Position numbers and translations under genes: made by a program
Notes under the pieces: generated by a model
The model's input: the letters and a program-made list of their open reading frames with translations, nothing else
Database searches by the model: none
Told to the model about the DNA's origin: nothing
Assembly: GCA_000004695.1 (NCBI GenBank)
Contig: CM000151.3
Location: 8,288,001-8,352,000, forward strand
DNA length: 64,000 bases
Reading direction: 5' to 3'
From: Dictyostelium discoideum
Lineage: Eukaryota
Shown here: positions 7,204 to 62,656 of the stretch, one piece after another
Position numbering within the stretch: position 1 is the stretch's first letter
How the letters are laid out: each line of letters opens with the position of its first letter

Positions 7204-10020
7204 ATGGGAACATTTAAAAAATTATTTTTAATTTTCTTTTTAATTATTATAAATATTTTATATTGTTATTGTGGTTGTGAATTTTCTAGTATCGGAGAAA
7301 ATAAAAAATATAATTTTACACCTGCATTCCCAGGGTAAGTAAAATATATATATATATTATCAAATAATTTTTATAAAAAATGAAATAATTAATAAAAAAA
7401 AAAAAAAAAAAAAAAAAATAGTGAATATATTTCAACTTCAGATGGTACAAATACAGTATTTTTAAATTTATGTACAACAAATCAAATTTCAAAATGTCCA
7501 ACTACAAGTGCTTGTATAAAAGATTCATCAAAAAATACAGATATAGGACAACAAGTTGGACCTGCAATTTTCCTACCAAAGGGAATATTACTTACATATA
7601 AATCACAAGCTTATCCAGAATGTGTTGGTCTTGGTGGTGTCGTTTCTACAAATTTTACAATTGAATGTAATTCAACAGATAATTCATTTACTTTGGATAA
7701 AATTCAACAATTTTCAATATGTAGTTATAGTATTAAATTTTTAACGAAATTAGCATGTGTATGTCCTGGTGATTGTTCATCACATGGTATATGTAATACC
7801 AATACTATTAAATGCGAATGTAATAGCTATGCAAGTGGTAGTTCATGTAATGAATTGAAAATGATAATATCAACAATATCCTCAACTACAATCTATGGTG
7901 GTGATGTCATGATTTCAGGTGACTTTTCAAATTTACCATTAGAAATTAAAAATAATTTAAAAATTAAAATTAATTGGGACGATTGTAAAAATGTGATAAA
8001 TATAAATAATAATACAATTCAATGTACAGCTGATAAAGGTTATAATGGTAATGGAATTGAAGTTGAGTTCTCAAGTGGACCTTTGTCAACTGTAATACCT
8101 GTGAATTTCAAATACATTGAAATACCATGTCCATTTAATTGCTCCTATCCAAATGGTGTATGTAATAAAATTCTAGGTACATGTACATGTAATCATAGTT
8201 GGATAAATGGTACTGGTTGTGAATTAATAAAAATTAAAACCCACTCAATTGAGCCAACAACTATAAATGGTGGTATAACTAATATCATTGGTGATTTCAC
8301 TATGATAATAAATAATGGTACAACAACATTTTTACCAAATAATTTAATAATTAAAATCGGTGATGATGATGATGATGACTCATCATTATGTCAAGATATT
8401 AAAATTTTAAATGACACAAATCTACAGTGTACTGTTTTACCTGGAAAACAAGGTAAAAAGAATTTAACCATTTCATCAGGACTTTCAATGGATTTTAATT
8501 ATCAATTATTTGAATACTTTAATAAGACTTGTTTATTTAATTGTTCATACCCTCATGGTGATTGTGATTTATTTACATCATATTGTAGTTGTGATAGTCA
8601 AACTAATGGCACAGGTTGTGAGAATTCTAAACTTGTAATAGAGTCAATAGATCCAACAGATGAACCAGGTGGTCTAACAAATGTTGTGGGATTCTTTGGT
8701 ATTCCCACATCGAATTTTTCTATTAAAATTGGTGATTTATTATGTAACAATTTATTAATAATAAATCAAAGTTTAATTCAATGTGTTGTACCACCTGGAA
8801 AAGGATTTAAAAATGTTTTTATATCAGATAGAGATTTATCATTCAATGGTGAATTAATGTTTAGATATTTTCAACCAATTGTTACAAATGCTCCTAAACA
8901 ATGTACAAATTGTGGTGCATTAAATCAAGGTTATTGTGCTTCTCAAGGTTGTATTTGTCATCCACCTTGGATGGGTGTTGATTGTCAATCTCAATATATA
9001 ATAATACCACAACCACCAAAAAATTCAACTAGTCCATCTGTAGAAATTCCAACATTTTCAAAACCAAATTCTACCAATGGTGGTGGTGGTAGTACAACAA
9101 GTACAGATATTGATGAAAATGAAAATATTGAAAAAAATGTTTTTAAATCGTTAATTGCAATTATTAAATTAAGTGAATTAGATTTTCAATCAAATGAAAT
9201 TAAATCATTTACATTTAGTGAATGGATTTATAAAGAACTAACACCATCAAAGTATCAATATAATACAACAATTAAAGTACCAACTACAAATGATGGAGGA
9301 GGAGGAGTATCACCATCATCATCGTCATCATCACTAAATGAAAGTGAAACTAATATTTCAGTAACATTAGAATGGTTTGAAAGTTTAACAAATATTACAT
9401 TTGCAAATGAAAATTTAATAATGAATCCATCATCAATTAAATATACAATTGAAATTTCAAAATATAAATTCTCAAGTAAACTTAATCAACTTCAATTAGT
9501 AATGATGGCAGAACTATCATCTAATAAAACTAAAGATCTTTGCTCAAATAATGAATTTGGTGAGACTTCAAGTGGAGATAATTCAAATTACATTAAAATT
9601 CAAGTTGACAATCATTCCCTCTATGGTAGATTCATAAAGAGAGCAATAATAGACTCAGTGCCAAGAGCAATTGGTAATGTACAATTGGATGAAACTATGA
9701 GACCACTTAAAAACGCATCGTCATCACAATCATATATTGGTATAGTTGTACCGTATTTTGAAAAATCAATTATAATTGATCCTGATTTCTCTGTATTAAT
9801 AGATAGTAGTAAACTTGAATCAAATTCAAATTCAAATTCAATTTGTCTTATTCAAGATCAATTAATATCTGGTTTAACAAAATCACAAATCGCTGGTATC
9901 ATCATTGGTTCAATTGCTTTCCTATGTTCAATAACTGCAATGGTAATTTATTCAATTCATAAATCAAATAAAGATAAATCTTTATTTTCAAAAATTACAT
10001 TAAGAAATTTAAATAAATAA
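7204..10020 (+). CDS. type I membrane glycoprotein with alternating IPT/TIG and EGF-like modules (Tgr/ComC-like architecture)
   Basis: Exon 1 is 7204..7334 and carries a signal peptide MGTFKKLFLIFFLIIINILYCYC. The intron is GTAAGT...AATAG (7335-7421), and exon 2 is 7422..10020. The N-terminal domain is Cys-bounded and may be MRH-like (...CSYSIKFLTKLAC). It is followed by three TIG-like beta-sandwich units (IKINWDDC..., IKIGDDDDDD..LQCTVLPGKQGKKNLTI, IKIGDLLCNN..IQCVVPPGKGFKNVFI), each followed by an EGF-like CxxNCSYPxGxCxxxxGxCxC module. Then come Thr/Ser-rich linkers and a single TM segment IAGIIIGSIAFLCSITAMVIY. Confidence 0.7.
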
Positions 10021-28108: not shown

Positions 28109-33865
<5,757 letters not shown>

Positions 33866-35827: not shown

Positions 35828-40506
<4,679 letters not shown>

Positions 40507-40999: not shown

Positions 41000-43264
41000 A
41001 TGCCAAAATTCTCAGATTATAGTTCATTATTAGCCCATTTAAAACAATGTGTAGAAAAAGGAAGTAAAGAACATACCAACGCTGCTATAGTAGATTATAT
41101 TAATTGCTATTCTGATTTAGAAATTGAAGAAAGTCAGGATGACAAAATAAATAATCAGTCAATCAAAAAAGAAATTGAACCAATTATTTATTCATTGATT
41201 GCCAATACATTCAAGGGAACACAAGTACTAAATACAAACAACAATGCTTCCACGTCTCCAATCACTGCAACATCAGATAATACACCACCTCCAACACCTA
41301 ACTTTACACCAGCGTCACCTGAATCAATTTTAAAAAAACCAAAGCCAATCCCATTAAGATTTAGCACCAATGGCGTAATAAATTCTTGTGAAAAAAATAC
41401 AAAGTACTATTACCTTGACCCAAGAGAATGTGAAGAATTAAAAAATAAGATGATATTAGGTCAATTTATATTGTTTTATGGAACAAGGTCATCAGGGAAG
41501 ACTACAACCTCCATTACTGTATGTGAACTTCTCAATAGTATTAAAGGTCATTTGTCTATTTTGTAAGTAACCATAACAAATTCATACCTTTTTTATGTAC
41601 AAATCGAATGACATTTATATTTTTTTTTTAAAAATTACAATCTAAAGTATCGACCTTCAAGGTCAAGTTATAAATAGTTCTTTAGATTTTTGGAAAGTGT
41701 TAATCAATTCAATTAGAATGCAATTAAGTATTGATACACCAACCACTAAAGAAATTGATGAAATGAGCATACGTCAATTAAAGGATTTAATTACCTTCAA
41801 TAATAGGAAATCGTTATTATTCAATAAAAAGGATGTCCATTTATTTATAGATGAATTTAATAATATCTCTGATGGAGGTGAAGAAACGATAACTCAAGTT
41901 TTATCGGATTTTAGGGAATGGAAAAATCAATCATCTTTATCAGCGATTAAAGTAAGTACTAATGCTAAAAAAAATGATAAATCGTTATAACCCTTTTCTA
42001 TAAATGATTAAATAATTAACCATTTTTACAAAAATAGTCTCTTATGGTCATTGGAACCTTTTCGATTTTAGATTTTAATACCTCAAATACAAATACTTCT
42101 CCATTCAATATTGCTCAAAGTTTTAAAGTTTTAAATTTTCAAAAAGAAGAGGTTGAGATATTATTTTCAAAATTTCAGAAATCTAGTGGTGTAGAAATTT
42201 ATCCACAAGTTATTGATGATATATTCATTATTACCAATGGCCATAAAGGACTTGTCAATTTAGTTGGAGAGATTATTCAAACTTCTCTTGAACCAAATAT
42301 TACAAAAAATGTATGGGATCATTTAATTAATAAGCAATTAATGATAAAATTATCGAAATACAAAACTGTAACAAGTATGACTCGTTGTTTAAACACTGGT
42401 TCAATTGATTTTTTAAAGACAATTAAAGATATTTTATTTAAATCCTACTATTCAGATACACCAATAAGCAAAACAATTGAATCGAATTACCTTGCACATG
42501 AAGGGATTTTATCTCAAGAGTAAGTATCATGATTTAGTTTATTAAACCAATATAATTTATTAATATTTTTTTTTTTAAAAAAAAAAAGTATTGAAGAAAT
42601 AAATGTTTTTAATTTTTCATCAAATATAATAAAAAATTTGGTTCTTCACCACCTCAGATCAAAAACAGCTATCGTAGGTTCTGTTCCATTTATAGGAGAC
42701 AATAAAGAACGTATTGATGTCCAACAATTAATTATTAATGCCGCCAAACAAATTAGTCCTTTAATTATAATCAACGCAATTCAAAGAAGTTTTAAAAAAT
42801 GTACCATTAGAACATCACAATTTGGACAAAAAGTTCCATGTGAATTTATTTACACAAATGAAATGTCAATTTATTTGACATTAATTATCAGTGAACGTGC
42901 AAATTCCAATTCACGTTACTATATCTCACCAAATAATAATATATTATACAATAAAAAAACATATAGACCCGATCTTGTAATTGGCAATGAATTATTGGGT
43001 CGTTATGTAATATTGGAGTTTGTCGCTACATCATCTAATGAAGACGTAAATGGACACATAGAAAGAACTCGCCTCTATATTGAAAACTATCCTGGTGCAA
43101 CTGAGGGTTGGGTAATTCATTTTACAATGGTTCGTGTCTCTAAAACATATCAATACCCAAAAGTACCAGTCAAGTATACAAAAGTTGGAATAATTCATAT
43201 TTACCATGATGAAAAATATTCAAATTTGGAATTCACCATTTATCCACCCGTAACCCAAAGTTAA
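41000..43264 (+). CDS. P-loop NTPase of archaeal-ATPase type (ATPase_2/Arch_ATPase-like) with a C-terminal DUF234/PD-(D/E)xK-like domain; 4 exons
   Basis: The exons are 41000..41562, 41648..41951, 42038..42519 and 42589..43264. All introns are GTAAGT...AG at phases 2/0/2 and link four ORF-track ORFs. Walker A is FILFYGTRSSGKTT and Walker B is VHLFIDEF. The sensor/wing motif IFIITNGHKGLVNLVGEII resembles the TGG-P-YL motif of PF01637-type ATPases. The C-terminal roughly 200 aa (...YRPDLVIGNELLGRYVILEFVATSS...) has a restriction-endonuclease-like D...E-x-(K) core, with K replaced by V. Confidence 0.55.
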
Positions 43265-43576: not shown

Positions 43577-45240
43577 TTACTGTTCTATATTTTCATCACC
43601 ACTGTTAGCACTTATATTAAGATTTTGTAAAGAAGAATGAGGAGATAAAGCTGGAGAAGAAGGATGTTGGGTTGGAGTTGAAGAGGAAGAACTATGTTTG
43701 GAACTATTATTATTATTATTTGATTGTTTTTCAGTAGGTGGTGGATCATCAGCTTCTAAAGAACCTAAAGCATGAGTAAACACTGATAATTGTTCACGAT
43801 CTCTACTAAGGTAAGAACCAGAGATATGTAAATAATGACGTTTAATAAATGATTGAATCACTGGGATATCTTGTTGATAAACTTCATTCAAAGTGATTGA
43901 AGAATCCCATTCAGTAAGATCCGATTGTTTAACTTGATCAAAGAATGTAGTGATCACTGGTTTCCAAGCATCCATTGATTCATTCAATTGTTGTGAACCT
44001 AAAATACTAGCCATAAATGATTGATTGGTACCGAAATTCACAAACATTGTAGATAAGAATGCCAATACCTCCAATGCTTGATCCGATGGTATAACATGGA
44101 ATAATTGATGTTGATGTGGTCTTGCAACAACTGGTGCAAATACTCTACTAAATAATAAACATCCAATTGGTGGTGATTTTGAACCTGGTGATAATTTATT
44201 TAATCCATTTTGAATTTCAATTGATGCTTTTTTAAATGGTCTATAAATAATTAATAATAAATAATTAATATTTAGAAATTTATATAGATATTATTAATAA
44301 TAATAATAATAATTAAACTTACGGTGGTAAATATTCACAAGAACCTTGGAAAATATTTAAAACATATTCAAATTCTGCTATTAAATTTGTAATACCTTGT
44401 TGAGTATTAATACGATAATTATCATGATAATTTATAATATTTGTAATTGATTGATCGAATAAATATTTCAAATAAGGTGTAGATGATGGTAAATTTGCAA
44501 TCTCTTCAATGAATTCACAAGAAACTATATCATATGGTAAGAATGTACCAGTCATTGAAATATTTGGTAAATCCGATTGTACCATCATTATCAATAATTC
44601 AGATAATTGTCCTCTTGCTTCAAATATACGCACTAAATTTGGTATGAAATGAATTGGTGGTGGTGGTACAACAATTGGTGTATTTGGTGGTGGTGGTGGT
44701 GGAAATAATTCATTCTTTCTAATCTCTGATAATAATTTCCATAAATAAAATGGTGGTGATACTAATAACTATATATATATATATAAAATATATTAATAAT
44801 TAATATTTTAATCATGATATTGAATTTAAAATAAAAATAAAAATCACATACATCGATAATTGGTTGATGTTTTAAATCTTCTTCTTTTTGTAATTCTAAA
44901 ACTCTTCTTGCATCTCTTTCAATACTTTCTTTTTGGAAATAATCTTGTTCATTAAGACACCAAGTTCTTAAACTATCGATATAAGTTTTAATACCTGCAT
45001 ATTCTGCATAAGCATTACCATTTAATAATTGCATAGATTCATAATGTAATACTAATAAATCAAGAAATTCTGTATGCATTCTATTCTCTGTATCTGTTAA
45101 ATAATATATATATTCATTCTTTACATTTTCATAATTTTGTTTTAATTTTGATTTTTCTTTTTCATACTAAGAAAATAAAATAAAATAAAATAAAATAAAA
45201 TAAAATAAAATAAAATAAAATAAATATTTTGTTTTTTTTG

Positions 45241-45271
<31 letters not shown>

Positions 45272-45980
45272 ATAATAATAAAATTAAACTTACATTATAA
45301 ATTTTAAGAATATCAATTTTCTTTTGAGTTTGTTGATGTTTAATTTTTGAAATTATATTTTCATATTCTTGTACAGCTTTATCAAACTTTTTTCTATATT
45401 GTTTTTTTTCATCGATTGCACCAATTAATATTTGAATTGGTTTAATTAAACCTTCCATCACTGAATTGATCCATTCTGATTCGAACCCACTAGTTTTTGT
45501 AATTGAACTTGTGAATTGTTCTAATGCTCTAATGAAACCAAGATTAGAATCAGAGGTTGATGTTTCACCATTACCATTGGCTGCTGCTGCTTGTTGTTGT
45601 TGTTGATAAACTTGTTGAGCTGAACTTGAATGAGTAGTTGATTTTTCATAATCTTTTGAGAATGATTGTGACCATTTGACTTGAGTTTTAGCAAACTGTT
45701 CACCACGATCATAATAATTTTTACAACTTTTTATAATATCATTTAATAAGACTTTGATATCATTTAAATTCTTTTCTGATAATTTAATTTCACTTGGTTC
45801 GATCACTTTTTCATTGATAGCTTCTCCAAATGGTGTATTGATTATTGATGTATCTGGACTACTACCACCACTATTACCATTACCACTTGTGTCAATATAA
45901 ACACTACTTCTATCACCTGCTGTTCCACCTGTCATATTCATAGAACTACTTTTTCTTAATAAATTTGTAAATTTTGACAT
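43577..45980 (-). CDS. BAR-domain protein with a RhoGAP-like C-terminal domain (GRAF/oligophrenin-like architecture); 4 exons
   Basis: The minus-strand exons are 45980..45294, 45166..44852, 44768..44323 and 44240..43577. The introns are GTAAGT...CTTAG, GTATGT...TATAG and GTAAGT...TTATAG. Exons 1-2 encode a BAR-like three-helix region (...YDRGEQFAKTQVKW...KKQYRKKFDKAVQEYENIISKIKH...). There is a poly-Pro linker. Exons 3-4 show RhoGAP-like blocks (LPYDIVSCEFIEEIANLPSSTPYLKYLFDQ resembles DVH-VA-LLK-YLRELPEPLLT-LY; IGCLLFSRVFAPVVARP resembles NLA-VFGPTLLRP). The expected arginine-finger position reads RIFEARG, so the domain may be catalytically inactive. Confidence 0.5.
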
Positions 45981-47998: not shown

Positions 47999-49227
47999 TA
48001 ATAATAATACTAAAACTACTGCAAAAAAAGAAGCAACAAATACAAATATAAATTTTAAAAATGTAAATAATATAAAGATAAGTAATATTAGTATGGAATC
48101 ATTTGCATCTAGTACTGGTAGTAGTGTAAATTTTACATCTACCGATTCTGAACATCAATCACGTGCAAATAATGAAAATATATGGTATTTCTTAAAGAAT
48201 GAATGTTATGATACTATAAAGAATATTGGTGATTTTAAATCTTATCAAGAAAAACAAGAGAATAGATCAGTTTGTTCCTATATCATAGATCCATCAACAT
48301 CTGGTTCATCATATAGTAAAATCTATTCAAGTAGTGGTGGTGGTGGTAGTAATGATATTGATCAACCATCAACTTATTCCGATAATGTTTATTCTTCAAA
48401 TTTAAGAGGTGTCAGTAGTATTAGCGCTAGTAATCCAAATTCCTATGGTGGTGGTGTTGTAAATAGTAGTGGTGGTAGTTTATATAAAATGAGTTCGTCA
48501 TTATATGGTGGTAGCAATTATAATAATAATAACAATAATAACTATAATAGTCAGCCACAATCTTCACTTTATGCAACTAAAGACTCTTTATGGAGAAGTG
48601 AATTAAATGGTAAATAAATCATCAATCCCATCCTCATTATAATTAAAATAATAATTACTAACTTAATTCATATTGATATTATTATTATTATTATTATTAT
48701 TATAGATTCAACATCATCAGCATCGGGATTGAATAGACTACAACAACAACAACAAGAAAGACCTGCAGATAGTTCATTAAGTAATTTAGTATCATATATG
48801 TCATTAACAGCTAGTAGCGGAAGTAATGGATTACAATCATCTATTGGTAGTAATAAATCATCAGGTGGTGGTTCATATATTGAACAATATTTAGAACCAA
48901 ATTCACCTGTATTAAATAGCAGTGGTGGTGTTGGTGCTAATAATATTTATAATAATAGTTACTTAAATTCAAGTAATAATTATTTAAATAATAATAATAA
49001 TAATTATTTAAATAACAGTAATGCTGTTGTTAATAATAGTAATACTACTACTACTACTAATAATAATAATAATTCAGGATATCATTATTTATTCCATAAT
49101 AATAATTCATATTCTGATAGATCATCACCGTTATCATCACAATCAAATATCCATAATTCATTCTCTTCATCTGTTGGTTCATCAGCTTCTTCATTATCTA
49201 ATAGTAATAGTAGTAGTAGTAGTAGTA

Positions 49228-49295
<68 letters not shown>

Positions 49296-52200
49296 CCATC
49301 ATTAGTTATTTCAAGTTCATCATCATCCTCCTCCTCCTCCTCATCATCACAACCACAACCACCACCATCACCAACACTATCACAACAAAAAATTATAATT
49401 GAAGAACAAAAATTAATTCAAATTGATCAAGTTTTACCATGGAATGAAAGTTTTCAACAATTATTAGATAAACCATTAAAATCATTAGAAGAAGAAAGAT
49501 TACGTAATCAAAATATTACCTATTTTTCACAACTTTTAGCAAATCAAGCCATTAAATATGTAAAGACATTGGTTAGAGAGGTACATTTAACACCAGATAG
49601 AAAAACCATTAAACCATTTGATTTCGGTGGATTAGCAGGTGGTGAAAAGTATAAAATCGATTCAATGTTTATAAAATTTGCATTGAATCCATATCATATC
49701 TATGAATGTAATAATCCGACATCTTATTATGCAAGTAAAGCAGCTAATCATGAATTGAAATCAATTGAAAAGTTGGTTAGTTGTGCAGTACCAAATTTAC
49801 ATTTTCCTTTAATTTGTCTTTTAAATTATCGTGGATTTAGGTTAAGCGTAATCTCTGAATTACCAATTTCATCCAATACGATAGTATTTGGTAGTTCAAA
49901 TGCTGGTAATACAATTCACGATGATGAAAATGTTTATAAAATGATGGTTAAAATTGGTGAAATTATAAATTTAAAAAATCATATTGCAAAAGAAAATGGT
50001 AAATCATTTTCATCATCATCAACAACAACATCGACAGATTTATTTTCAAGTATAGGAAGTAGTAGTAGTAGTGGTAGTAATAGTAGTTCAAATAAAAATG
50101 GTGGATTATTTAAAATTCCATTAGCAATTGATATTGAAGGTCATCATGGTAAAGATGGTAGATATTATATTGTTGATTCAGCAAGATTAAGTGTACCAGA
50201 GAAACCATTGGCAGGTATAACAGGGGGATTTCTTTATAGATTATTTAGATTTGAATTTATAAAAAGATATGAGAATCAGTTATGTGCAGATTCATTTTCA
50301 AATTTTCAAGTATTAGATTTGGATAGTCATAATTTGGAGGTTGAAAAAGCATCACATTATTTAATTAATACAGTTATACCATCATTTGTTGAGAATGTTT
50401 TATTAAAAGATAAACAATCATTAAAGAAATTAAATTTAAAAGAGTTACTTCATAGGGATGGTATTAATCTTAGATATTTAGGTTTAATACTTTATAGAAT
50501 TTCATTGATTGGAAATTCAATGAAAATCATTTTAAATAGAATTGAAGTTTTAAAAGGATTACTTACAGTGGAAATGTTGGCTAGATTATTAAGATTTATC
50601 GTTTTCTCTGAAATGTGTAAATTAAATGAACCTGATGACCATCACCATTTACAAATTTGTGTTAATCATTTGAATTTACTATTATCGTCATCTGGTACGT
50701 CAATGGTTGATTCTCAAATCTATTGGTCAAATTTCATATCGAATGCGTTAATTGCAAAGTATACCTCATTCTCCTCATTATCCAACGACCAATGCCAAGG
50801 CTTGAAATCATTAATCAACGATTCCAATGGACTTTGTTTAATATTAAATAGCCAATCTACGAAATTACGTTATAAACTATTGAAAAAGTTTTCACGTTTA
50901 ACTGGTGTTATCATTAGTCCACGTTATTTACAACAATTGAAAACATTATCAATTCAAAATTCATTACCATCTTTTATGGCGAAATCATTGGTAATTCCAC
51001 CATTGACAGTATCGGATTTAATTGAAGTTCAAGTGGTTGTTAAACATATGAAAATTCTATCAACATTTAAAGCATTTGAAAAGTTTACCGATGCTGAACA
51101 ATATTATCTACAAGAATTGGAGAATAAATCACAAAAACTTGGTAAAGATCATACTCAAGTTGCAATCACTCATATTTATTTATCAGATCTTTACGTTTCA
51201 AATTTATTATTCACTCAAGCTGAAAAACATATAAATCATGCAATTGAAATTTATAATGTTAGATTTGGTTCAATCGATATTGGTACAACTACAACCAAAG
51301 AGAAATTAGGTTTAATTTATATTAAACAAAAGAAATATCAAGAAGCAACCACATTATTTAAAGAGGTATTAGAAATTAAAAAATCAATTCTATCAACTGA
51401 TAACATTGAAATAGCTGATACTTTTGATAATTTAGCATGGGTTTATCAAAATAAAGGTGATTTTCAATTATCAATTTCAAATTATTCTGAAGCATTAAGA
51501 ATTAAGAATGAAAAAACTGGAAATTCATTAACTACCGCTAAAACTTTAAATAATATTGGTCATTTATTTTTAACAACTAATGAAGTTAAGAAATCCATTG
51601 AAATCTTTTTAAAAGTTCGTGAAATCTTTATAACTCATCGTGGTCCTGAACATTCTGAAGTGGCAGTGGCTGAAGATAATTTAGGTATTGTTTATACTAA
51701 AACTAGAGAATATCCATTAGCTGAGAAATCTTTTAAATCTGCTATTGCAATTAGATCGAAACAGTATGGTAAGGAATCGGCATTAGTAGCATCGACTCAA
51801 AATCATTTGGCTCAATTATATTTAACATGGGGTGATATAGCAAAATCAAAACAATCTGAATCAATTGAATTGTTTAAATCATCGATTAATATCGTTGATA
51901 AATTCCCTGATTTCTACAGTCGTGCTTTCATGCGTTATTCATTCTCAAAATATTATCGTATTAAAAAAGATAAACCTCAAGAGATTAAACTAATAAATGA
52001 GGCATTATCAATTTTGGAAATGCATAATATCGTATCGGATTTAATAACAACTCTAAGGGAGAGAAGAGATTATCTCTCAAAAACTGGTTTTAGTAAAATC
52101 ATTGGTTGGGTACGTGATCCAAAACCAAACTCTTTAATTGGCTCAGGCAGTGGTAGTAGTATTGGTGGTATTCATTTAGGTGTTGGTCATCATACACCAT

Positions 52201-54473
52201 TGGTTAATCATCAAGCCTTTATTGAATCAGAAAATCATGGTTCTGGTCATATGGAAATGTCTTCAAATGCTTTTGCTTCAAAACATAATTCAATTCCAAA
52301 GGAATGGCAAGAAATTTTCAATGAAATTGGTATCACTAGTGAAGAATGGTCTGATCCACAATATTCTGCAAATTTACAATCAATCATTCAAGAAGCAATC
52401 ATTGAACAACAACTTAAAAATAAAAAGAATAGTCCAATAAATACAACAACAAGAAAAACAAAATCTAAAAAGAAATTATTATCATCCTCATCAACAACTA
52501 CTACTACAACCACAACTAATTCAACAAATACAACAGTATCTCCAATATTAGATTCAATTATTAGTAGTGCTGCAAAACTTGAAAAGAAACATAAAATGGT
52601 TTCAAAAGAAGTTAAAACAAAGATAAAGAAAGAGATGGACATAGTTAGTGAGAGATTTGAATCAACTACAACTATGTTACAATCAAATATTAGAGATAGA
52701 GTAAACTCATTATCACTTGGTGATACCTCAGGTGGTAAAGAGAAAATGTCTGAAGAAAGAAGAGTAAAACCAAATTCAATGTCTTCACCAAAAAGACCCT
52801 CAACTACTTCATCATTATCATCATCATCAACATCAACAACAACATCAACAACAACAGCAACTAAATTCACAGCTAGACGTCAAATATCAACAAGTTCACC
52901 ACTACCATCACAACCAACTAGTGGTTTAACTCCAATGACACAAATTAAATTGGTTAAAACTTCACAAATTTCAAAACCATCTCTACCAATGACGCCACCA
53001 TCATTGTCCTCACCAATTACATCTCCATTACCATCTCCCCCTCCACCAGGTGGAGCTGTTGTCAAAAGTCTACCAGCTCCTCCACCACCAGCTCCTCCAC
53101 CATCAGCTGGAAGTGCCCCACTATCACCACTACCACCATCATTATCTAGTGGTCCAGTATTAATGAAACAATCACCACCACCACCACCACCAATGTTTGA
53201 CCAATTAATGTCGATACCATCACCAATAACAACTCCAACTCCAACTCCAATCCCAATCCCAACTCCAATCCCAACTCCAACTTCAACTCAAGAATCAATG
53301 TATCCAAAAATGGATTTACCAACAACAACAGCAGCACCAAAACCAATTAGTAGACCAACATCATCACCACTTCCATCAAAAAATATATCTTCATCCTCAT
53401 CATTCTTTAATGGATTATTTAATAGAAAATCAACACCAGTTCCTGCCCCTGTTTTAAATTCAGGTTCGTCAATGGTCTCTCGTAGTTTCTCTAGTAGTAT
53501 AAAAGAAGAATCATCTTCACAATCAACTCCACCCTCATTATATCCAAAACTTAGTTTGGAAAAGATTGAATCCCATTCATCTGAGCCACCACCAGTAAGA
53601 CAAACTCCACAATATTTGTCACAACCACCACAACCACAACAATTACAACAACCACCACAACCACAACAATTACAACAACCACCACAACCACAACAATTAC
53701 AACAACCACCACAACCACAACAATTACAACAACCACCACAACCACAACCATTACAACAGCCACAACCACAACAATTACAACAATCACAACCACAACAAGA
53801 AACTCAATCAACTTTTTCAAAATTAAGAAATATTGTTAATATTTCAAATTCTGGTAATATTTTACACTCACCAACTTCTTATCAAACCTATACTCCAAAT
53901 TATTCAAACTTTTATTTGCAACAACAACCTCAACAACCTCAACAACCTCAACAACCTCAACAACCTCAACCACAACAAATGTTGTTGGATCAAGAAAGAC
54001 AACATCAAATTATTCAAGAGTCATTAGATTTTAGAAGATCAGCAACAACTGTATCTCAATCTTCATTAATATTATTTGATAGTGATGAACAATCATTACG
54101 TTTAAGTGATAATAAAATCTACGAAGATCTTGATGATAATAATGATGATGATGAACAACAAATCGAAAATGAATATCAAGAAGAGGAAACATTAGAAGAA
54201 TATTGTGAAGGTGACGAGCCAACACAATATTGTGAACTAAATGCTGATGAAGATGAAGTAGAAGAAGAAGAAGATGACGAAGAAGAAGATGAAGACGAAG
54301 ACGAGGAAGGCGAAAGTGAAAGTAACGAAGAAGAACAAGAAGAACAAGCTCAAGGGGTAGATGGAAAACTCCATTGGTCACAATTAAGTGAAATGTTAAA
54401 GACAGAAGATTTTGTAAATACTATAAAACAAAAATTAAGAGAAAACAAAAATAATTTCTCATTAAAAAAATAA
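47817..54473 (+). CDS. CLU-domain plus TPR protein (clustered-mitochondria/TIF31-like), long form with Pro-rich and acidic C-terminal regions
   Basis: The exons are 47817..48609 and 48706..54473. The intron is GTAAAT...TTATAG (96 nt, contains TACTAAC), and the phase-1 join is in frame with ORF 48729. The ORF-track 'M' at 47787 is GTG and the first ATG is 47817. The CLU core is GHHGKDGRYYIVDSARLSVPE (compare GSDGRHYLLD-AR-FP). It is followed by kinesin-light-chain-type TPRs (A-TL-NLG--Y---G-Y--A---Y--AL-I). Then come PPPP/PxP repeats, (QQPPQPQQL)x5 and a D/E-rich tail. Confidence 0.65.
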
Positions 54474-56737: not shown

Positions 56738-57719
56738 ATGATAGATTATTGGGTTGTATATATGGTTCAGTTTTAGGTGATGCTTATGGTTTAGGTAAAT
56801 AAATAATTTTTAAAAAAAAAAAAAAAAAAAAATTGTGTGTTAAAAATAAAATTTTAATTTTATTTTTTTTTTTTTTAATTTTTTTCAATAGCAACTGAAT
56901 TATTAAATAAAGAACAAATTATAAAAATATATGGTAGTAATCCAATTCCATTTCCATCAAATATAAGAACATCACATTCATGTAGATGGTTAAGAGGAGA
57001 TTGGACAGATGAAAGTGATCAAATGATATTAGTTATGGATTCAATTATTGAGAGTGGTGGTAAAATTGATGAAGTAAACTTTGCAAAGAAATTACAAAAA
57101 TGGGTAACAAGTGGATTTCCAGAATTGGGAGATCAAGCAGGTATCGGTTCAAGTTTTAGCTCAATTGCATTACAATCACAATTTACAAGCAATCCATTCT
57201 ATGTAAGTGAGAAGAACTGGGTCACAAGTGGTAGACGTTCAGCAACCAACGGTTCATTACCACGAGCACCCATTTTAGGTTGTATTCAATATGATAAATT
57301 AGCAAATGTAATTAGTAACTCAACAGCACTTTGTAAAGTTACTCATTTTGATCAACGTTGTATCATCTCTTCAAATGTTTTAGCAATTACAGTGGCAATG
57401 TTATTAAATAATGCTGCAACTAAAAAAGCATTACTATCAAGTACTGAAAGAAAAAATGATGAAGTTGATCATGTAATTGAAGAAGTTGCAAAAGGTGCTT
57501 GTAGCATGTTATCTGGTTCAATTCAAGAAAGAGTTGAATTTGAAGAAATCATTTATAATACTTCTTTGGAATCTTTAAATTTATCATATTCTGATTCATT
57601 ATCTTATGTTTTCAAAGGTTTAGGTGCTGGTTTTTGGGGTTTAAGATCAAATTATTCTTTTAAAGATACTTTAAATTTAATTGTTAGAGAAGGTGGTGAT
57701 TCTGATTGGTATGTTTTAA

Positions 57720-57789
<70 letters not shown>

Positions 57790-57971
57790 TAATTATTTAA
57801 TTTATTTTTTAAATTATTAGTAATGCATTTATTTGTGGAGCATTATTGGGTTGTAAAAATGGATATTCAAATTTACCAAAGGAATGGTTATGTGCATTAC
57901 CTTATAAAGAATGGTTAGATCAAAAAGTTGTTAAATTTGTTGAGATAGTTAGAAGAAGTAAAAAAGATTAA
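56738..57971 (+). CDS. ADP-ribosylglycohydrolase (ARH family); its start region is frame-disrupted
   Basis: Exon 1 ends at 56794 (donor GTAAAT), exon 2 is 56892..57708 and exon 3 is 57821..57971. The introns end TTCAATAG and TTATTAG. Family motifs are present: N-terminal ...LLGCIYGSVLGDAYGLG (compare GSLLG-AVGDALG), GDWTDESDQMILVMDSI (compare TDDT-M) and, across intron 2, REGGDSD|CNAFICGALLGCKNGYSNLPKEWL (compare GGDTDTNAAIAGALLGA-YG---IP--W). The ATG at 56738 is +1 out of frame with the Gly-rich exon. Reading ATGgATAGATTATTGGGT would give MDRLLGCIYGSVLGDAYGLG, so I infer one missing G. Confidence 0.6.
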
Positions 57972-59285: not shown

Positions 59286-60386
59286 ATGGAAAAAATAAAT
59301 CAAACTCCAAAAAAGCATAAAATTATTGAACCGAATAGAAAAGGTTATTCAATTGTTGGCAAAAATACTGGTAAACCAAATAAAATTTATTTTGAAACAT
59401 TTGGTAATGGTCCAAAGAAAATTTTATTTATTACTGGATTTTTATCATCATCTAAAGGTTGGTGTAAACAAATTGATTATTTCACAAATAAAAAGGATCA
59501 ATATGAAATTTGTGTTTTTGATAATAGAGGTATTGGAAAATCAAATATTGATTCAAAATATTCATATAATTTTTCAACAAAATCTATGGCAATGGATGCA
59601 ATTGATCTGTTGGAAGACACATTAAAATGGGATAAAGTTCATATTTGTGGCTTGTCAATGGGTGGTATGGCATCAATTCATCTATCTTCAATTATACCTG
59701 AAAAAGTACAATCTCTAGTTATTGCATGTGTTCCAAATGGATATTTTTTACCATTCTTTTCAATGGGTGTATTCAATTATATCCGTGCTTTTTTCTTCAC
59801 ATTTAATGAAAAGAAAAAGGCAAGAATATTTCAATCATTAATGTACTCTGATAATTATTTAGATGAGAAAACCAATGGATCAGATGAGACTAGAAGTGAA
59901 CAAATGTTTAAAAAGAATTCAACCGGATTTAAAGATGATGGTCCTTCTTTTTTAACTATTTTGGGTCACCAAATTGGTTACATTACCAATAGATTCTCAA
60001 AGAAATCATTGGAAGTTATTAAAAAATATTCAATTCCAACCATTGTAATAAATTCTAAAAAAGATTCGTTGGTCACTATTGATATTACAAAAAAACAAAT
60101 TGTTAATCCATTGAAGCCATTAAATTTTCATGTTATTGAAGGTGGTCATTTAAGTCAACTTGAAAATCCAACTTTTTTTAATAAATTAGTTGAAAATCAT
60201 GTTGATAAACATTCAAATTGGGATCATTCAACTTTTTTTCAAGTTGAAAAACAACAATTTCAACGTCAATCATTTATGACACAAAATATATTATACTCAA
60301 AGAACTATTTATCATCAAATACATTATCATCATCATTTTTAAATTGTAATACATTAAGATCTTTTTTCAATAAAATTAAAGTTTAA
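59286..60386 (+). CDS. alpha/beta-hydrolase fold serine hydrolase
   Basis: It is a single exon of 366 aa. It has an HG-type oxyanion region ILFITGF and the nucleophile elbow GLSMGG. A later His lies in VIEGGHLSQLENP. The overall order is typical of the abhydrolase_1/6 families. Confidence 0.7.
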   Translation: MEKINQTPKKHKIIEPNRKGYSIVGKNTGKPNKIYFETFGNGPKKILFITGFLSSSKGWCKQIDYFTNKKDQYEICVFDNRGIGKSNIDSKYSYNFSTKSMAMDAIDLLEDTLKWDKVHICGLSMGGMASIHLSSIIPEKVQSLVIACVPNGYFLPFFSMGVFNYIRAFFFTFNEKKKARIFQSLMYSDNYLDEKTNGSDETRSEQMFKKNSTGFKDDGPSFLTILGHQIGYITNRFSKKSLEVIKKYSIPTIVINSKKDSLVTIDITKKQIVNPLKPLNFHVIEGGHLSQLENPTFFNKLVENHVDKHSNWDHSTFFQVEKQQFQRQSFMTQNILYSKNYLSSNTLSSSFLNCNTLRSFFNKIKV

Positions 60387-61000: not shown

Positions 61001-62656
61001 TTACTTTGGGATACCCTTTAAAGAATTTAAATTTCCACTGCTGATATTATTAATTCCGCCATTATGAAATTTATATCTTCTTGAGGGAGAATTATTCTCT
61101 AAACCACTATTATTGTTATTACTATTATTATTATTACTATCAATAAATGAAGAGAAACCACCAGAATTATAATTTGGTGAAGAAGATAATTGTGCCAATG
61201 ATGATATTACAGGTGAAGAAGAAGGTGAAGATGCAATTGATAATATTGAAGTGAATGAAGCTAAAGGTGGTGTATATGATGTATTATTATTGTTGATGAT
61301 GTTATTACTATTATTACTATTATTACTATTATTACTATTACTATTATTATTACTATTAATACCTCCATTAGGATTATTTAATAATAATAAATTATTACTG
61401 CTTATATTTGGAGATGATGGGTCGGAATGTTGTTGTTGTTGTTGTTGTTGTAAAAATAAATCTCTTTGTCTCTTTGGTTGTGATCTATTTGATGGTGAAT
61501 TGGGTTGTTGATTAGGTGATGATAAACCATTAAATCCATTTAAATTTGAACTATTATTTATACTATTTATATTCATACTGCTATTATTATCAGACGAAGT
61601 ATCCATATCACCACTACCATTTAATTTTATATTATTATTATTATTATTATTTACATTTTCGATTGAAATTGGATTTAAAATTGATCTTTCTCTACTTTCT
61701 CCTATATTAAATCTACTTCTTCTATTTATATTTTGATTTGGTGATGATGGTGATATCTGTTGTATTGGTAATGGTGAGTGTTGTAATGGTATTGGTGATT
61801 GTAGTATTTGTGGTGAATTTTGTTGTTGTGGTTGTTGTTGTTGTTGCTGTTGTAAATGAGAGAAATGTCTGCCCTCTAAAAATGATGGTGATGAACATGA
61901 TGGTGTTGATGGTGATGATGATGATATATTATTATTAATATTATTATTTAAAATATTACTGAATGAGCCAATTCCTCCATTATTACTATTACTATTATTA
62001 TTATTATTATTACTACTACTACTATTATTATTATTTAAAATGTTTATACTATTATTTGGAGAAACATTGCTATTATTATTACTATTACTATTACTATTAC
62101 TATTATCATGAGGTTGTTGTTTTGATAATAAGTCTGATAATCTTGATTTTAAATCATTATTCTCTCTAAGAGCACTTTCAATTTGTTCTTCTAATTGATT
62201 AATCTTTAAATAGTTTTCATTTTGTAACATTCCCAATTGTTTAGTTTGTTGTAATAATTGATTTCTATCAGATTCCAAATTATCAACGATTGTTTCCAAC
62301 TTTTCTAAATATTCCTTTTTTCTTTCTCTATATTGTGCTGCTGATTGTCTATTTTGCATTTGTCTAAATTAAAAATAAAAATAAAAATTAAAAAAAAAAT
62401 AAAAATAAAAAAAAAGGAATTAATTATTAGATACTGATTTTTTTAAAAAAAAAATAAAAAAATAAAAGATAATAATAAATTAAGTATACCTTATTTTTTT
62501 CTTTTTTGCTTCTTCATCATCAAATAGCATTGAATTTGTGAAACCACTACCTGTACTACTTGTAAAACTACTACCAAAACTACTTGTTCCACTATAAACA
62601 CTACTACTATCTACACTTCCGTCACTGCTATCCAAACTTCTTGGTGAGTTCATCAT
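61001..62656 (-). CDS. bZIP transcription factor
   Basis: The minus-strand exons are 62656..62490 and 62363..61001, with an intron GTATAC...AATTTAG (126 nt) at phase 2. The Ser-rich N-terminus MMNSPRSLDSSDGS... runs into the basic region EEAKKKKIR|QMQNRQSAAQYRERKKEYLEKLE (N-x2-AA-x2-[CS]R-x-RKK). This continues into a heptad Leu zipper LEKLETIVDNLESDRNQLLQQTKQLGML..., followed by a long Asn/Ser/Gln-rich activation-like region. Confidence 0.75.

Follow-up and report, generated by a model that had tools for sequence, protein, structure and literature searches.

Gene model and predicted architecture

A 64,000-nucleotide stretch of the Dictyostelium discoideum genome (assembly GCA_000004695.1, contig CM000151.3, positions 8,288,001 to 8,352,000), made of AT-rich Dictyostelium DNA with 22% GC, carries the gene DDB_G0277693, whose product combines an AAA+ nucleoside triphosphatase (NTPase) with a domain predicted to adopt the fold of restriction endonucleases (REases). 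This whole stretch is hereafter called the window, and all coordinates are window positions on the forward strand (+) unless otherwise mentioned. The gene extends from 41000 to 43264 and consists of exon 1 (41000..41562), which codes for residues 1-188 and ends with the first two bases of codon 188, exon 2 (41648..41951), exon 3 (42038..42519) and exon 4 (42589..43264), which includes the TAA stop codon. The introns between them (41563..41647, 41952..42037 and 42520..42588) have a length of 85, 86 and 69 nucleotides and a GC content of 20, 20 and 12%, respectively; each conforms to GTAAGT...AG, and three GTAAGT donors are present in 41000-43264. Once the four exons are joined, the coding sequence (2025 nucleotides) is open and gives 674 codons for a protein of 674 amino acids, identical (100% identity over 100% of the length) to the NCBI entry 'hypothetical protein DDB_G0277693 [Dictyostelium discoideum AX4]'. 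Since the product of the spliced model is the annotated protein, the start, the stop, the four exons and the three GTAAGT introns given in a preliminary description of this DNA, made from the sequence alone, prove to be exact. The host codon usage that it had noted is likewise in line with the GC content of the exons (27-31%, against 12-20% in the introns), which is similar to that of the coding parts of the neighboring genes (24-30%). No second copy of the gene was found in the 64-kb window by tblastn, and a full-text literature search for the name DDB_G0277693 returned no paper.

The AlphaFold2 model of the protein, built from a 43-sequence alignment of its family, is confident, with a mean predicted local distance difference test score (pLDDT) of 83.1 and a predicted template modeling score (pTM) of 0.72, and it divides the protein into five parts. 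The N-terminal header (residues 1-72, 41000..41215) is predicted to form three helices (residues 7-20, 23-42 and 46-72, pLDDT ~75-88) and is followed by a linker rich in proline, threonine, serine and asparagine (residues 73-119, 41216..41356), which appears disordered (pLDDT <50 for residues 74-109) and has at its end a basic sequence patch, KKPKP (41333-41347). Next come the NTPase core, of the ORC/Cdc6-like AAA+ type described by Pfam as AAA_35, with its helical lid (residues ~120-375, 41357..42295, spanning introns 1 and 2), and a helical and winged-helix region of the helix-turn-helix (HTH) type (residues ~376-485, 42296..42694, spanning intron 3), for which the model has helices within residues 379-443 and strands at 447-449 and 456-459. 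The last part is the predicted REase-fold domain of the PD-(D/E)xK superfamily (residues 486-674, 42695..43261). Regarding the header, it is an orphan conserved in direct orthologues only: a Pfam search with residues 1-143 gave no match, a sequence search started from residues 1-74 retrieved no relatives and, when the N-termini of 92 family members were compared all-against-all, the header of DDB_G0277693 resembled that of its own orthologue only.

Among solved structures, the full model matches best the archaeal ATPases PABY2304 (2qen) and SSO1545 (2fna), followed by Cdc6/Orc1, NLRs, TnsC and MuB. The winged-helix region co-aligns with the ATPase and winged-helix parts of 2qen and 2fna (304 and 294 residues aligned, respectively), and the model thus has the fold of the solved archaeal ATPase_2 members, i.e., AAA+ core, lid and winged helix. 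These archaeal proteins (350-352 amino acids) are the closest solved structures but have no REase domain, and the likeness to ORC/Cdc6, TnsC and MuB is similarly confined to the AAA+ and winged-helix core, no nuclease domain being present in them. Sequence-based searches were less informative: the single protein had no match in the PDB, the family profile retrieved only AAA+/P-loop proteins of a generic kind, the best specific ones being ORC4 and Cdc6, the C-terminal profile found just a non-significant match to Cas4 (E 1.2), and the NCBIfam and PADLOC libraries gave no match to the protein at E<=10.

Weak matches to nSTAND Pfam families in 2 of the 43 aligned relatives, together with an evolution reminiscent of conflict genes (see below), could suggest a STAND/NLR-like immune sensor, in which the NTPase would oligomerize upon ligand binding and the REase would act as executioner. 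Neither the Pfam scan nor the model, however, has a repeat or sensor domain at the C-terminus (LRR, WD40 or TPR), the protein ending with the REase-fold domain; the archaeal ATPases and ORC/Cdc6 are the best structural matches by a clear margin, and it is ORC4 and Cdc6 that the profile finds among PDB sequences. We consider such an immune sensor very unlikely.

The NTPase and the REase-fold domain

The NTPase is matched by the Pfam family AAA_35 (PF14516) above its gathering cut-off (30.4 vs 27 bits, E 2.4e-7, residues 137-365). The intact orthologue P0002, from a sibling isolate, reaches 34.7 bits, and AAA_35 is matched by 35 of the 43 relatives. The preliminary description had placed this domain in the archaeal and bacterial family ATPase_2, or Arch_ATPase (PF01637), and had proposed a HMMER search against Pfam as a check; in this search, the PF01637 score of DDB_G0277693 remains at 14.5 bits (E 0.031), below the cut-off of 33.2 bits, and the best score among the 43 relatives is 28.1 bits, so that the identity as ATPase_2 has to be abandoned in favor of AAA_35. 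The sequence motifs pointed out at the same time, including the D...E-x-hydrophobic core of the C-terminal domain, are all at the places indicated and, in view of the AAA_35 score, of the hundreds of relatives described below and of their near-invariance in the family, they are not due to chance. Walker A, GTRSSGKTT (residues 161-169, 41480..41506), has G161, R163, G166, K167 and T169 near-invariant in the family (G166 in 89/89 and K167 in 87/89 sequences; these and all following conservation counts are over all family members covering the given position). Walker B, HLFIDEF (residues 252-258, 41838..41858), contains D256 (132/134) and E257 (117/135). Both signatures of AAA+ proteins, GxxxxGK[ST] and hhhhDE, are hence intact in DDB_G0277693. 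Further downstream, the SPFN motif (residues 310-313, 42098..42109) is conserved for its serine (134/141), proline (128/141) and phenylalanine (136/141) and is common to the bacterial AAA_35 proteins P0004 and P0171, while the lid motif TNGHKGLVNL (residues 355-364, 42233..42262), with the consensus T-x-G-H-x-G-L-V (G357 in 144/146, H358 in 123/140), aligns with TAGQPWLVN of bacterial P0004.

The predicted structure of the C-terminal domain has the alpha-beta-beta-beta-alpha-beta core fold of the restriction-endonuclease superfamily. In this core, helix alpha-1 bears the sequence VPCEFIY (42833..42853), in which P533 (90/96), E535 (89/94) and Y538 (91/93) are conserved; one strand, RPDLVI (residues 576-581, 42965..42982), carries the catalytic-type D578 (42971-42973; 84/89), which aligns with the aspartate of the bacterial R-M-D-hhh motif, and another strand, ILEFVAT (residues 591-597, 43010..43030), carries E593 (43016-43018; 86/91) and A596 (86/92). 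The acidic residues expected in a PD-(D/E)xK site are thus present, with E535 on helix 1, D578 on strand 2 and E593 on strand 3. They are accompanied by K519 (42794..42796; 91/97), a lysine that hardly varies in the family, precedes the nuclease core and is a candidate stand-in for the lysine of the ExK motif, by H606 (85/91) and R609 (arginine or lysine in 83/90) in the HIER sequence of the helix following the E593 strand (43055..43066), and by H656 (43205..43207; 83/85) in the last core strand, IIHIYHD. At position 595, which corresponds to the ExK lysine, DDB_G0277693 has a valine and the family L (33), V (31), M (8), A (7), E (5) or S (2), lysine being found in 0/92 members. The preliminary description had also predicted a DUF234-like tail. 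This did not hold, as DUF234 (PF03008), DUF4143 and PDDEXK_9 have no match in the tail: a Pfam search with residues 450-674 returned nothing at E<=10, and DUF234 was found in 0/43 relatives at E<=0.01. We are dealing neither with the proposed ATPase_2-DUF234 combination nor with a eukaryote-wide ATPase family devoid of a nuclease-like C-terminus.

The family-wide replacement of the ExK lysine, called hydrophobic in 92/92 members, raises the possibility that the REase-fold domain is catalytically dead and that the protein is an ATP-dependent DNA-binding or scaffolding factor, comparable to the inactive REase folds of some regulators. Conserved acidic residues would be unexpected in a dead site, and this weakens such a reading, since E535, D578 and E593 are kept in ~94-95% of the sequences, along with K519, H606 and H656. 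Moreover, the top fold neighbors of the domain are the type II restriction endonucleases BamHI, OkrAI, BstYI and BglII, and enzymes of the BamHI/BglII type are active with a glutamate or a glutamine in place of the ExK lysine; in addition, no other domain of the protein is as constrained as the REase (dN/dS 0.34, see below). The resemblance to these endonucleases has its limits: their identity to the REase domain is 6-14%, they have E or Q at the position that is hydrophobic here, and they are free-standing, dimeric enzymes, whereas the domain of DDB_G0277693 is fused to an ATPase. Taken together, the retention of the acidic triad and of the basic and imidazole residues, the nature of the fold neighbors and the constraint on the domain favor a re-wired, functional site over a dead one, and we regard a dead domain as unlikely. 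Regarding the lysine that the preliminary description considered lost, it is indeed absent from DDB_G0277693, but its absence is a feature of the whole family and no loss in this protein alone. That it is missing family-wide in the midst of near-invariant E535, D578, E593, K519, H606 and H656 argues against a simple decay of the active site.

A eukaryotic family related to Crinkler effectors

A full HMMER scan over 1.84 billion representative proteins retrieved 502 relatives at E<=1e-3, 200 at E<=1e-10 and 30 at E<=1e-30, while a word-indexed homologue search was almost blind to the family (4, then 7 matches). Most full-length relatives (~550-720 amino acids) align to residues ~115-665 as a single stretch, which indicates that the NTPase, the winged helix and the REase travel together. 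Relatives carrying a name are eukaryotic without exception. In dictyostelids, they comprise an orthologue and two paralogues in Dictyostelium cf. discoideum, three proteins of Tieghemostelium lacteum, and Polysphondylium violaceum; other Amoebozoa (Nolandella, Vannella) and protist transcriptomes are also represented. The fungal relatives belong to Glomeromycota, Mucoromycota, Mortierellomycota, a chytrid and basidiomycetes and include Rhizophagus irregularis, R. clarus, Endogone, Apophysomyces, Gryganskiella, Entomortierella, the chytrid Obelidium, and the basidiomycetes Ramaria, Amanita and Serendipita. Two database labels deserve a comment: NCBI and UniProt list P0019 (Tieghemostelium lacteum KYR01549.1) as 'eukaryotic translation initiation factor 2A', and JGI lists P0039 as 'EcfA2'; both names appear to be misannotations of AAA_35-REase proteins. 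One further, metagenomic member, P0183, lies on a 592-kb contig of JGI 3300061462 (L005:8001-9944), among BTB, Kelch/EGF and ankyrin genes, and may come from a protist or, conceivably, from a giant virus.

The decisive observation concerns what precedes this module in other species. In 6 of the 43 aligned relatives (P0017, P0020, P0022, P0027, P0035 and P0053), the Pfam Crinkler effector N-terminal domain (PF20147) is found directly before the same module, with E-values from 2.6e-4 to 1.3e-26, and clustering of the N-termini assigns a header of the Crinkler type to 22 of the 92 members. Family members with a Crinkler header before the module occur in Ramaria, Amanita, Serendipita, Apophysomyces, Gryganskiella and Entomortierella. 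The C-terminal module of DDB_G0277693 is therefore homologous to one that stands behind a Crinkler header and, as the same module occupies this place in fungi, it corresponds to the NTPase, HTH and REase toxin module of Crinkler/RHS-type (CR) effectors. The CR effector class was reportedly described, amoebozoans included, by Zhang, Burroughs, Vidal, Iyer and Aravind in NAR in 2016.

Among the C-terminal modules of CR effectors, an NTPase (with or without HTH) followed by a REase is the most frequent, as the work of Zhang et al. 2016 is summarized in PMC5289972. According to PMC5289972, PMC12957317 and PMC11064341, these proteins are built from a header, ubiquitin-like or of various alpha-helical types, followed by an enzymatic module in which toxicity is attributed to the REase and a regulatory role to the NTPase; CR proteins are also mentioned in free-living eukaryotes, including amoebozoans, and a prokaryotic origin is proposed for the C-terminal modules. 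DDB_G0277693 and CR effectors have in common the same three-domain module, the arrangement header, linker, enzymatic module, a patchy distribution in eukaryotes and a prokaryotic ancestry. They differ by the header, since an orphan three-helix domain replaces the ubiquitin-like (Ubl), LxLFLAK-type one, which is absent from DDB_G0277693: Pfam finds nothing in residues 1-143, and the model shows three helices and no Ubl fold. In addition, Rhizophagus CRN proteins whose NTPase belongs to another family, such as CR-NTPase4 in RiCRN2, did not match the family profile. DDB_G0277693 is a member of an already known, widespread eukaryotic Crinkler-type family, an assignment that we make with high confidence.

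Several points nevertheless weigh against carrying this interpretation too far. The status of 'effector' is attributed to DDB_G0277693 by analogy, because its header resembles neither the Crinkler Ubl domain nor anything else; the CR assignment is made at the level of the module and without a numbered CR-NTPase or CR-REase family, the Rhizophagus CRN proteins tested being unmatched; the nuclease activity of the predicted REase domain is not assured, given the missing ExK lysine; and the lesions of the sibling pseudogene described below are read from one assembly (GCA_054859205.1).

In bacteria, AAA_35 proteins of the same architecture exist. Four of them were examined (511-549 amino acids), including P0004, from a metagenome, and P0171, from Fusobacteriota. 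Their NTPase matches the eukaryotic profile with E-values of 2.6e-43 and 8e-34, SPFN and the T-x-G-x-P-x-LV motif included, and their C-terminal domains align with the eukaryotic C-terminal profile (hhalign probability 93.4%, E 2.4e-7) in such a way that the E, D and E columns coincide. Both domains are thus homologous to those of DDB_G0277693 and stand in the same order. The bacterial proteins are however shorter, with neither header nor linker, lack the K519, VPxExxY, H606 and H656 signature of eukaryotes, and have a canonical E-x-K in 4/4 cases (IVETK, VIELK, IVELK and VIECK). In the gene neighborhoods of P0171 and P0173, no defense island or transposon was seen, these genes being solitary. 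As these bacterial proteins of the same architecture are true homologues in both domains, an ultimately prokaryotic origin of the module is plausible from the sequence comparisons. A rough distance-based neighbor-joining tree, which has no support values and is weak evidence only, separates the eukaryotic sequences from two bacterial outgroups, groups the fungal sequences in one clade and distributes the dictyostelid ones among several groups basal to fungi. Together with the shared derived change in the active site, this tree suggests that the module was acquired long ago by the eukaryotic family as a whole, before its spread through fungi and Amoebozoa, and not by a transfer into Dictyostelium itself.

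It is in this light that the scenario of the preliminary description, a PF01637-DUF234 protein taken directly from a prokaryote and domesticated in the amoeba, has to be judged. In its favor are the closest solved structures, which belong to archaeal ATPases (2qen and 2fna), weak ATPase_2 matches in 14 of the 43 relatives (best E 2.2e-6) and the homology of the bacterial proteins. Nonetheless, AAA_35 and not ATPase_2 exceeds its cut-off, DUF234 is missing from the protein and its 43 relatives, the closest sequences come from fungi and Amoebozoa, not from prokaryotes, the tree keeps eukaryotes apart from the bacterial outgroups, and the change of the lysine is common to the whole eukaryotic family. 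What survives is the two-part architecture of prokaryotic type and a prokaryotic ancestry, attested by the bacterial homologues; the isolated, amoeba-specific import has to be given up, every named close relative being eukaryotic, and we deem the scenario as a whole quite unlikely.

Evolution of the locus and possible function

Two 'Dictyostelium cf. discoideum' assemblies have the gene in a syntenic position. Between AX4 and the intact orthologue P0002 of the L001 isolate (81% amino-acid identity), the numbers of nonsynonymous (dN) and synonymous (dS) substitutions per site, estimated according to Nei-Gojobori, are 0.102 and 0.236 (dN/dS 0.43) for DDB_G0277693, whereas seven flanking coding segments (34084-54473) have, for the same pair of genomes, dN values of 0.012-0.069, dS values of 0.09-0.16 and dN/dS ratios of 0.07-0.61. 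The gene thus evolves faster than its neighbors, with dN and dS both above the flanking range. From one domain to the next, the ratio falls from 0.70 in the header to 0.51 in the winged helix, 0.41 in the NTPase and 0.34 in the REase, the latter being the most constrained domain and the header the least. A reading of ordinary divergence, drawn from the crude 81% amino-acid identity, was reversed by this codon-level analysis. As for the raised dS, old alleles or balancing selection, a local mutation rate or a weak codon bias may be involved.

In the sibling isolate GCA_054859205.1 (L004:4001-6250), the orthologue has 90% nucleotide identity and is disrupted at four points: a nonsense change, TGC to TGA, at codon 36 (window 41105), an in-frame deletion of 21 nucleotides (window 41710-41730), a frameshifting insertion of one nucleotide after window 41873, and a second nonsense change, TCA to TAA, at codon 428 (window 42452). 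The annotation has two distinct gene models in its place (384 and 233 amino acids), while a three-way comparison shows that the genes flanking it stay conserved. The moderate constraint and the pseudogene of the sibling suggest that DDB_G0277693 is dispensable in a close relative and behaves like a fast-evolving conflict or accessory gene and not like a core enzyme.

The surroundings of the gene are ordinary. Immediately upstream is an open reading frame (ORF) of 1162 amino acids (37018-40506, +) with long poly-N and poly-Q tracts, one run having ~40 Q, and no Pfam match; it keeps its synteny in sibling isolates. Farther upstream, an ORF of 1918 amino acids (28109-33865, +), equally without Pfam match, contains low-complexity repeats, which cross-match several places in L001 as well as the window at 48.9-49.3 kb. 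This side of the window also harbors a gene for a TIG/ComC-supersandwich protein (7693-10020, +) and one for tRNA-His (GTG) (2826-2897, +). Downstream are a BAR_3-domain gene on the reverse strand (45162-45980, -), an ORF of 1914 amino acids with CLU (clustered mitochondria), eIF3_p135 and TPR domains (48729-54473, +), i.e., a housekeeping gene of the cluA type, an ADP-ribosylglycohydrolase (57023-57820, +), an alpha/beta hydrolase (59286-60386, +) and a bZIP protein (61001-62359, -). No transposable element, transposase, repeats or conflict-gene context were found among the neighbors of DDB_G0277693.

This genomic context bears on the idea that the gene could be the remnant of a transposon, made of a TnsC/MuB-like ATPase and a TnsA-like nuclease and still transposing. 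A TniB match in 1 of the 43 relatives speaks for it, as do the ties between NTPase-REase modules and prokaryotic transposons reported in PMC5289972. Against it, the gene is single-copy and syntenic, with ordinary flanks, no transposase or repeats nearby and no other copy in the window, and those bacterial relatives that were examined stand alone in their genomic neighborhoods. We hold a transposing remnant to be extremely improbable.

With the CR-type module as the preferred interpretation, a mode of action can be proposed, of which we infer all the steps. The NTPase, with its intact Walker A and Walker B, would bind ATP and, together with the winged helix, would bind DNA and probably oligomerize on it, as do ORC/Cdc6, TnsC and MuB. 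This would in turn allow the C-terminal nuclease domain to cleave nucleic acid, using a putative metal-binding triad, E535-D578-E593, in which K519, H606, R609 and H656 may take the place of the ExK lysine. The header and the linker would direct or regulate the module, and KKPKP could serve for nuclear import. Such a module may act as a toxin or as an anti-invader nuclease, whose targets could be invading DNA, the genome of another cell or, possibly, nothing any longer. We regard the identity of the protein as a CR-type module, with this general mode of action, as probable; the full statement, which includes an active, ATP-gated nuclease predicted from sequence and model, is only slightly favored.

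Beyond this, we tentatively raise the more speculative and rather unlikely idea that the eukaryotic AAA_35-REase family has re-wired its catalytic site, K519, H606, R609 or H656 standing in for the ExK lysine beside the E-D-E triad, and that in social amoebae it serves not as a secreted effector but as a cell-autonomous, ATP-gated nuclease of intracellular conflict, for instance against invading DNA, viruses or transposons, or as a self/non-self toxin. If this were true, the high dN and dS of the gene compared with its flanking genes and the coexistence of functional and pseudogene alleles would reflect diversifying or balancing selection.

CR effectors matter in plant disease and mycorrhiza and, to our knowledge, the coupling between ATPase and nuclease in Crinkler-type NTPase-REase modules has never been dissected biochemically. 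The present analysis gives a 'hypothetical protein' of a tractable model organism a concrete, testable function, and Dictyostelium could serve to dissect this coupling. Moreover, the family-wide absence of the catalytic lysine beside invariant residues poses a mechanistic question of its own. Finally, the rapid evolution of DDB_G0277693 and its decay in a sibling isolate bear on the reasons why 'effector' genes persist in organisms that are not pathogens.

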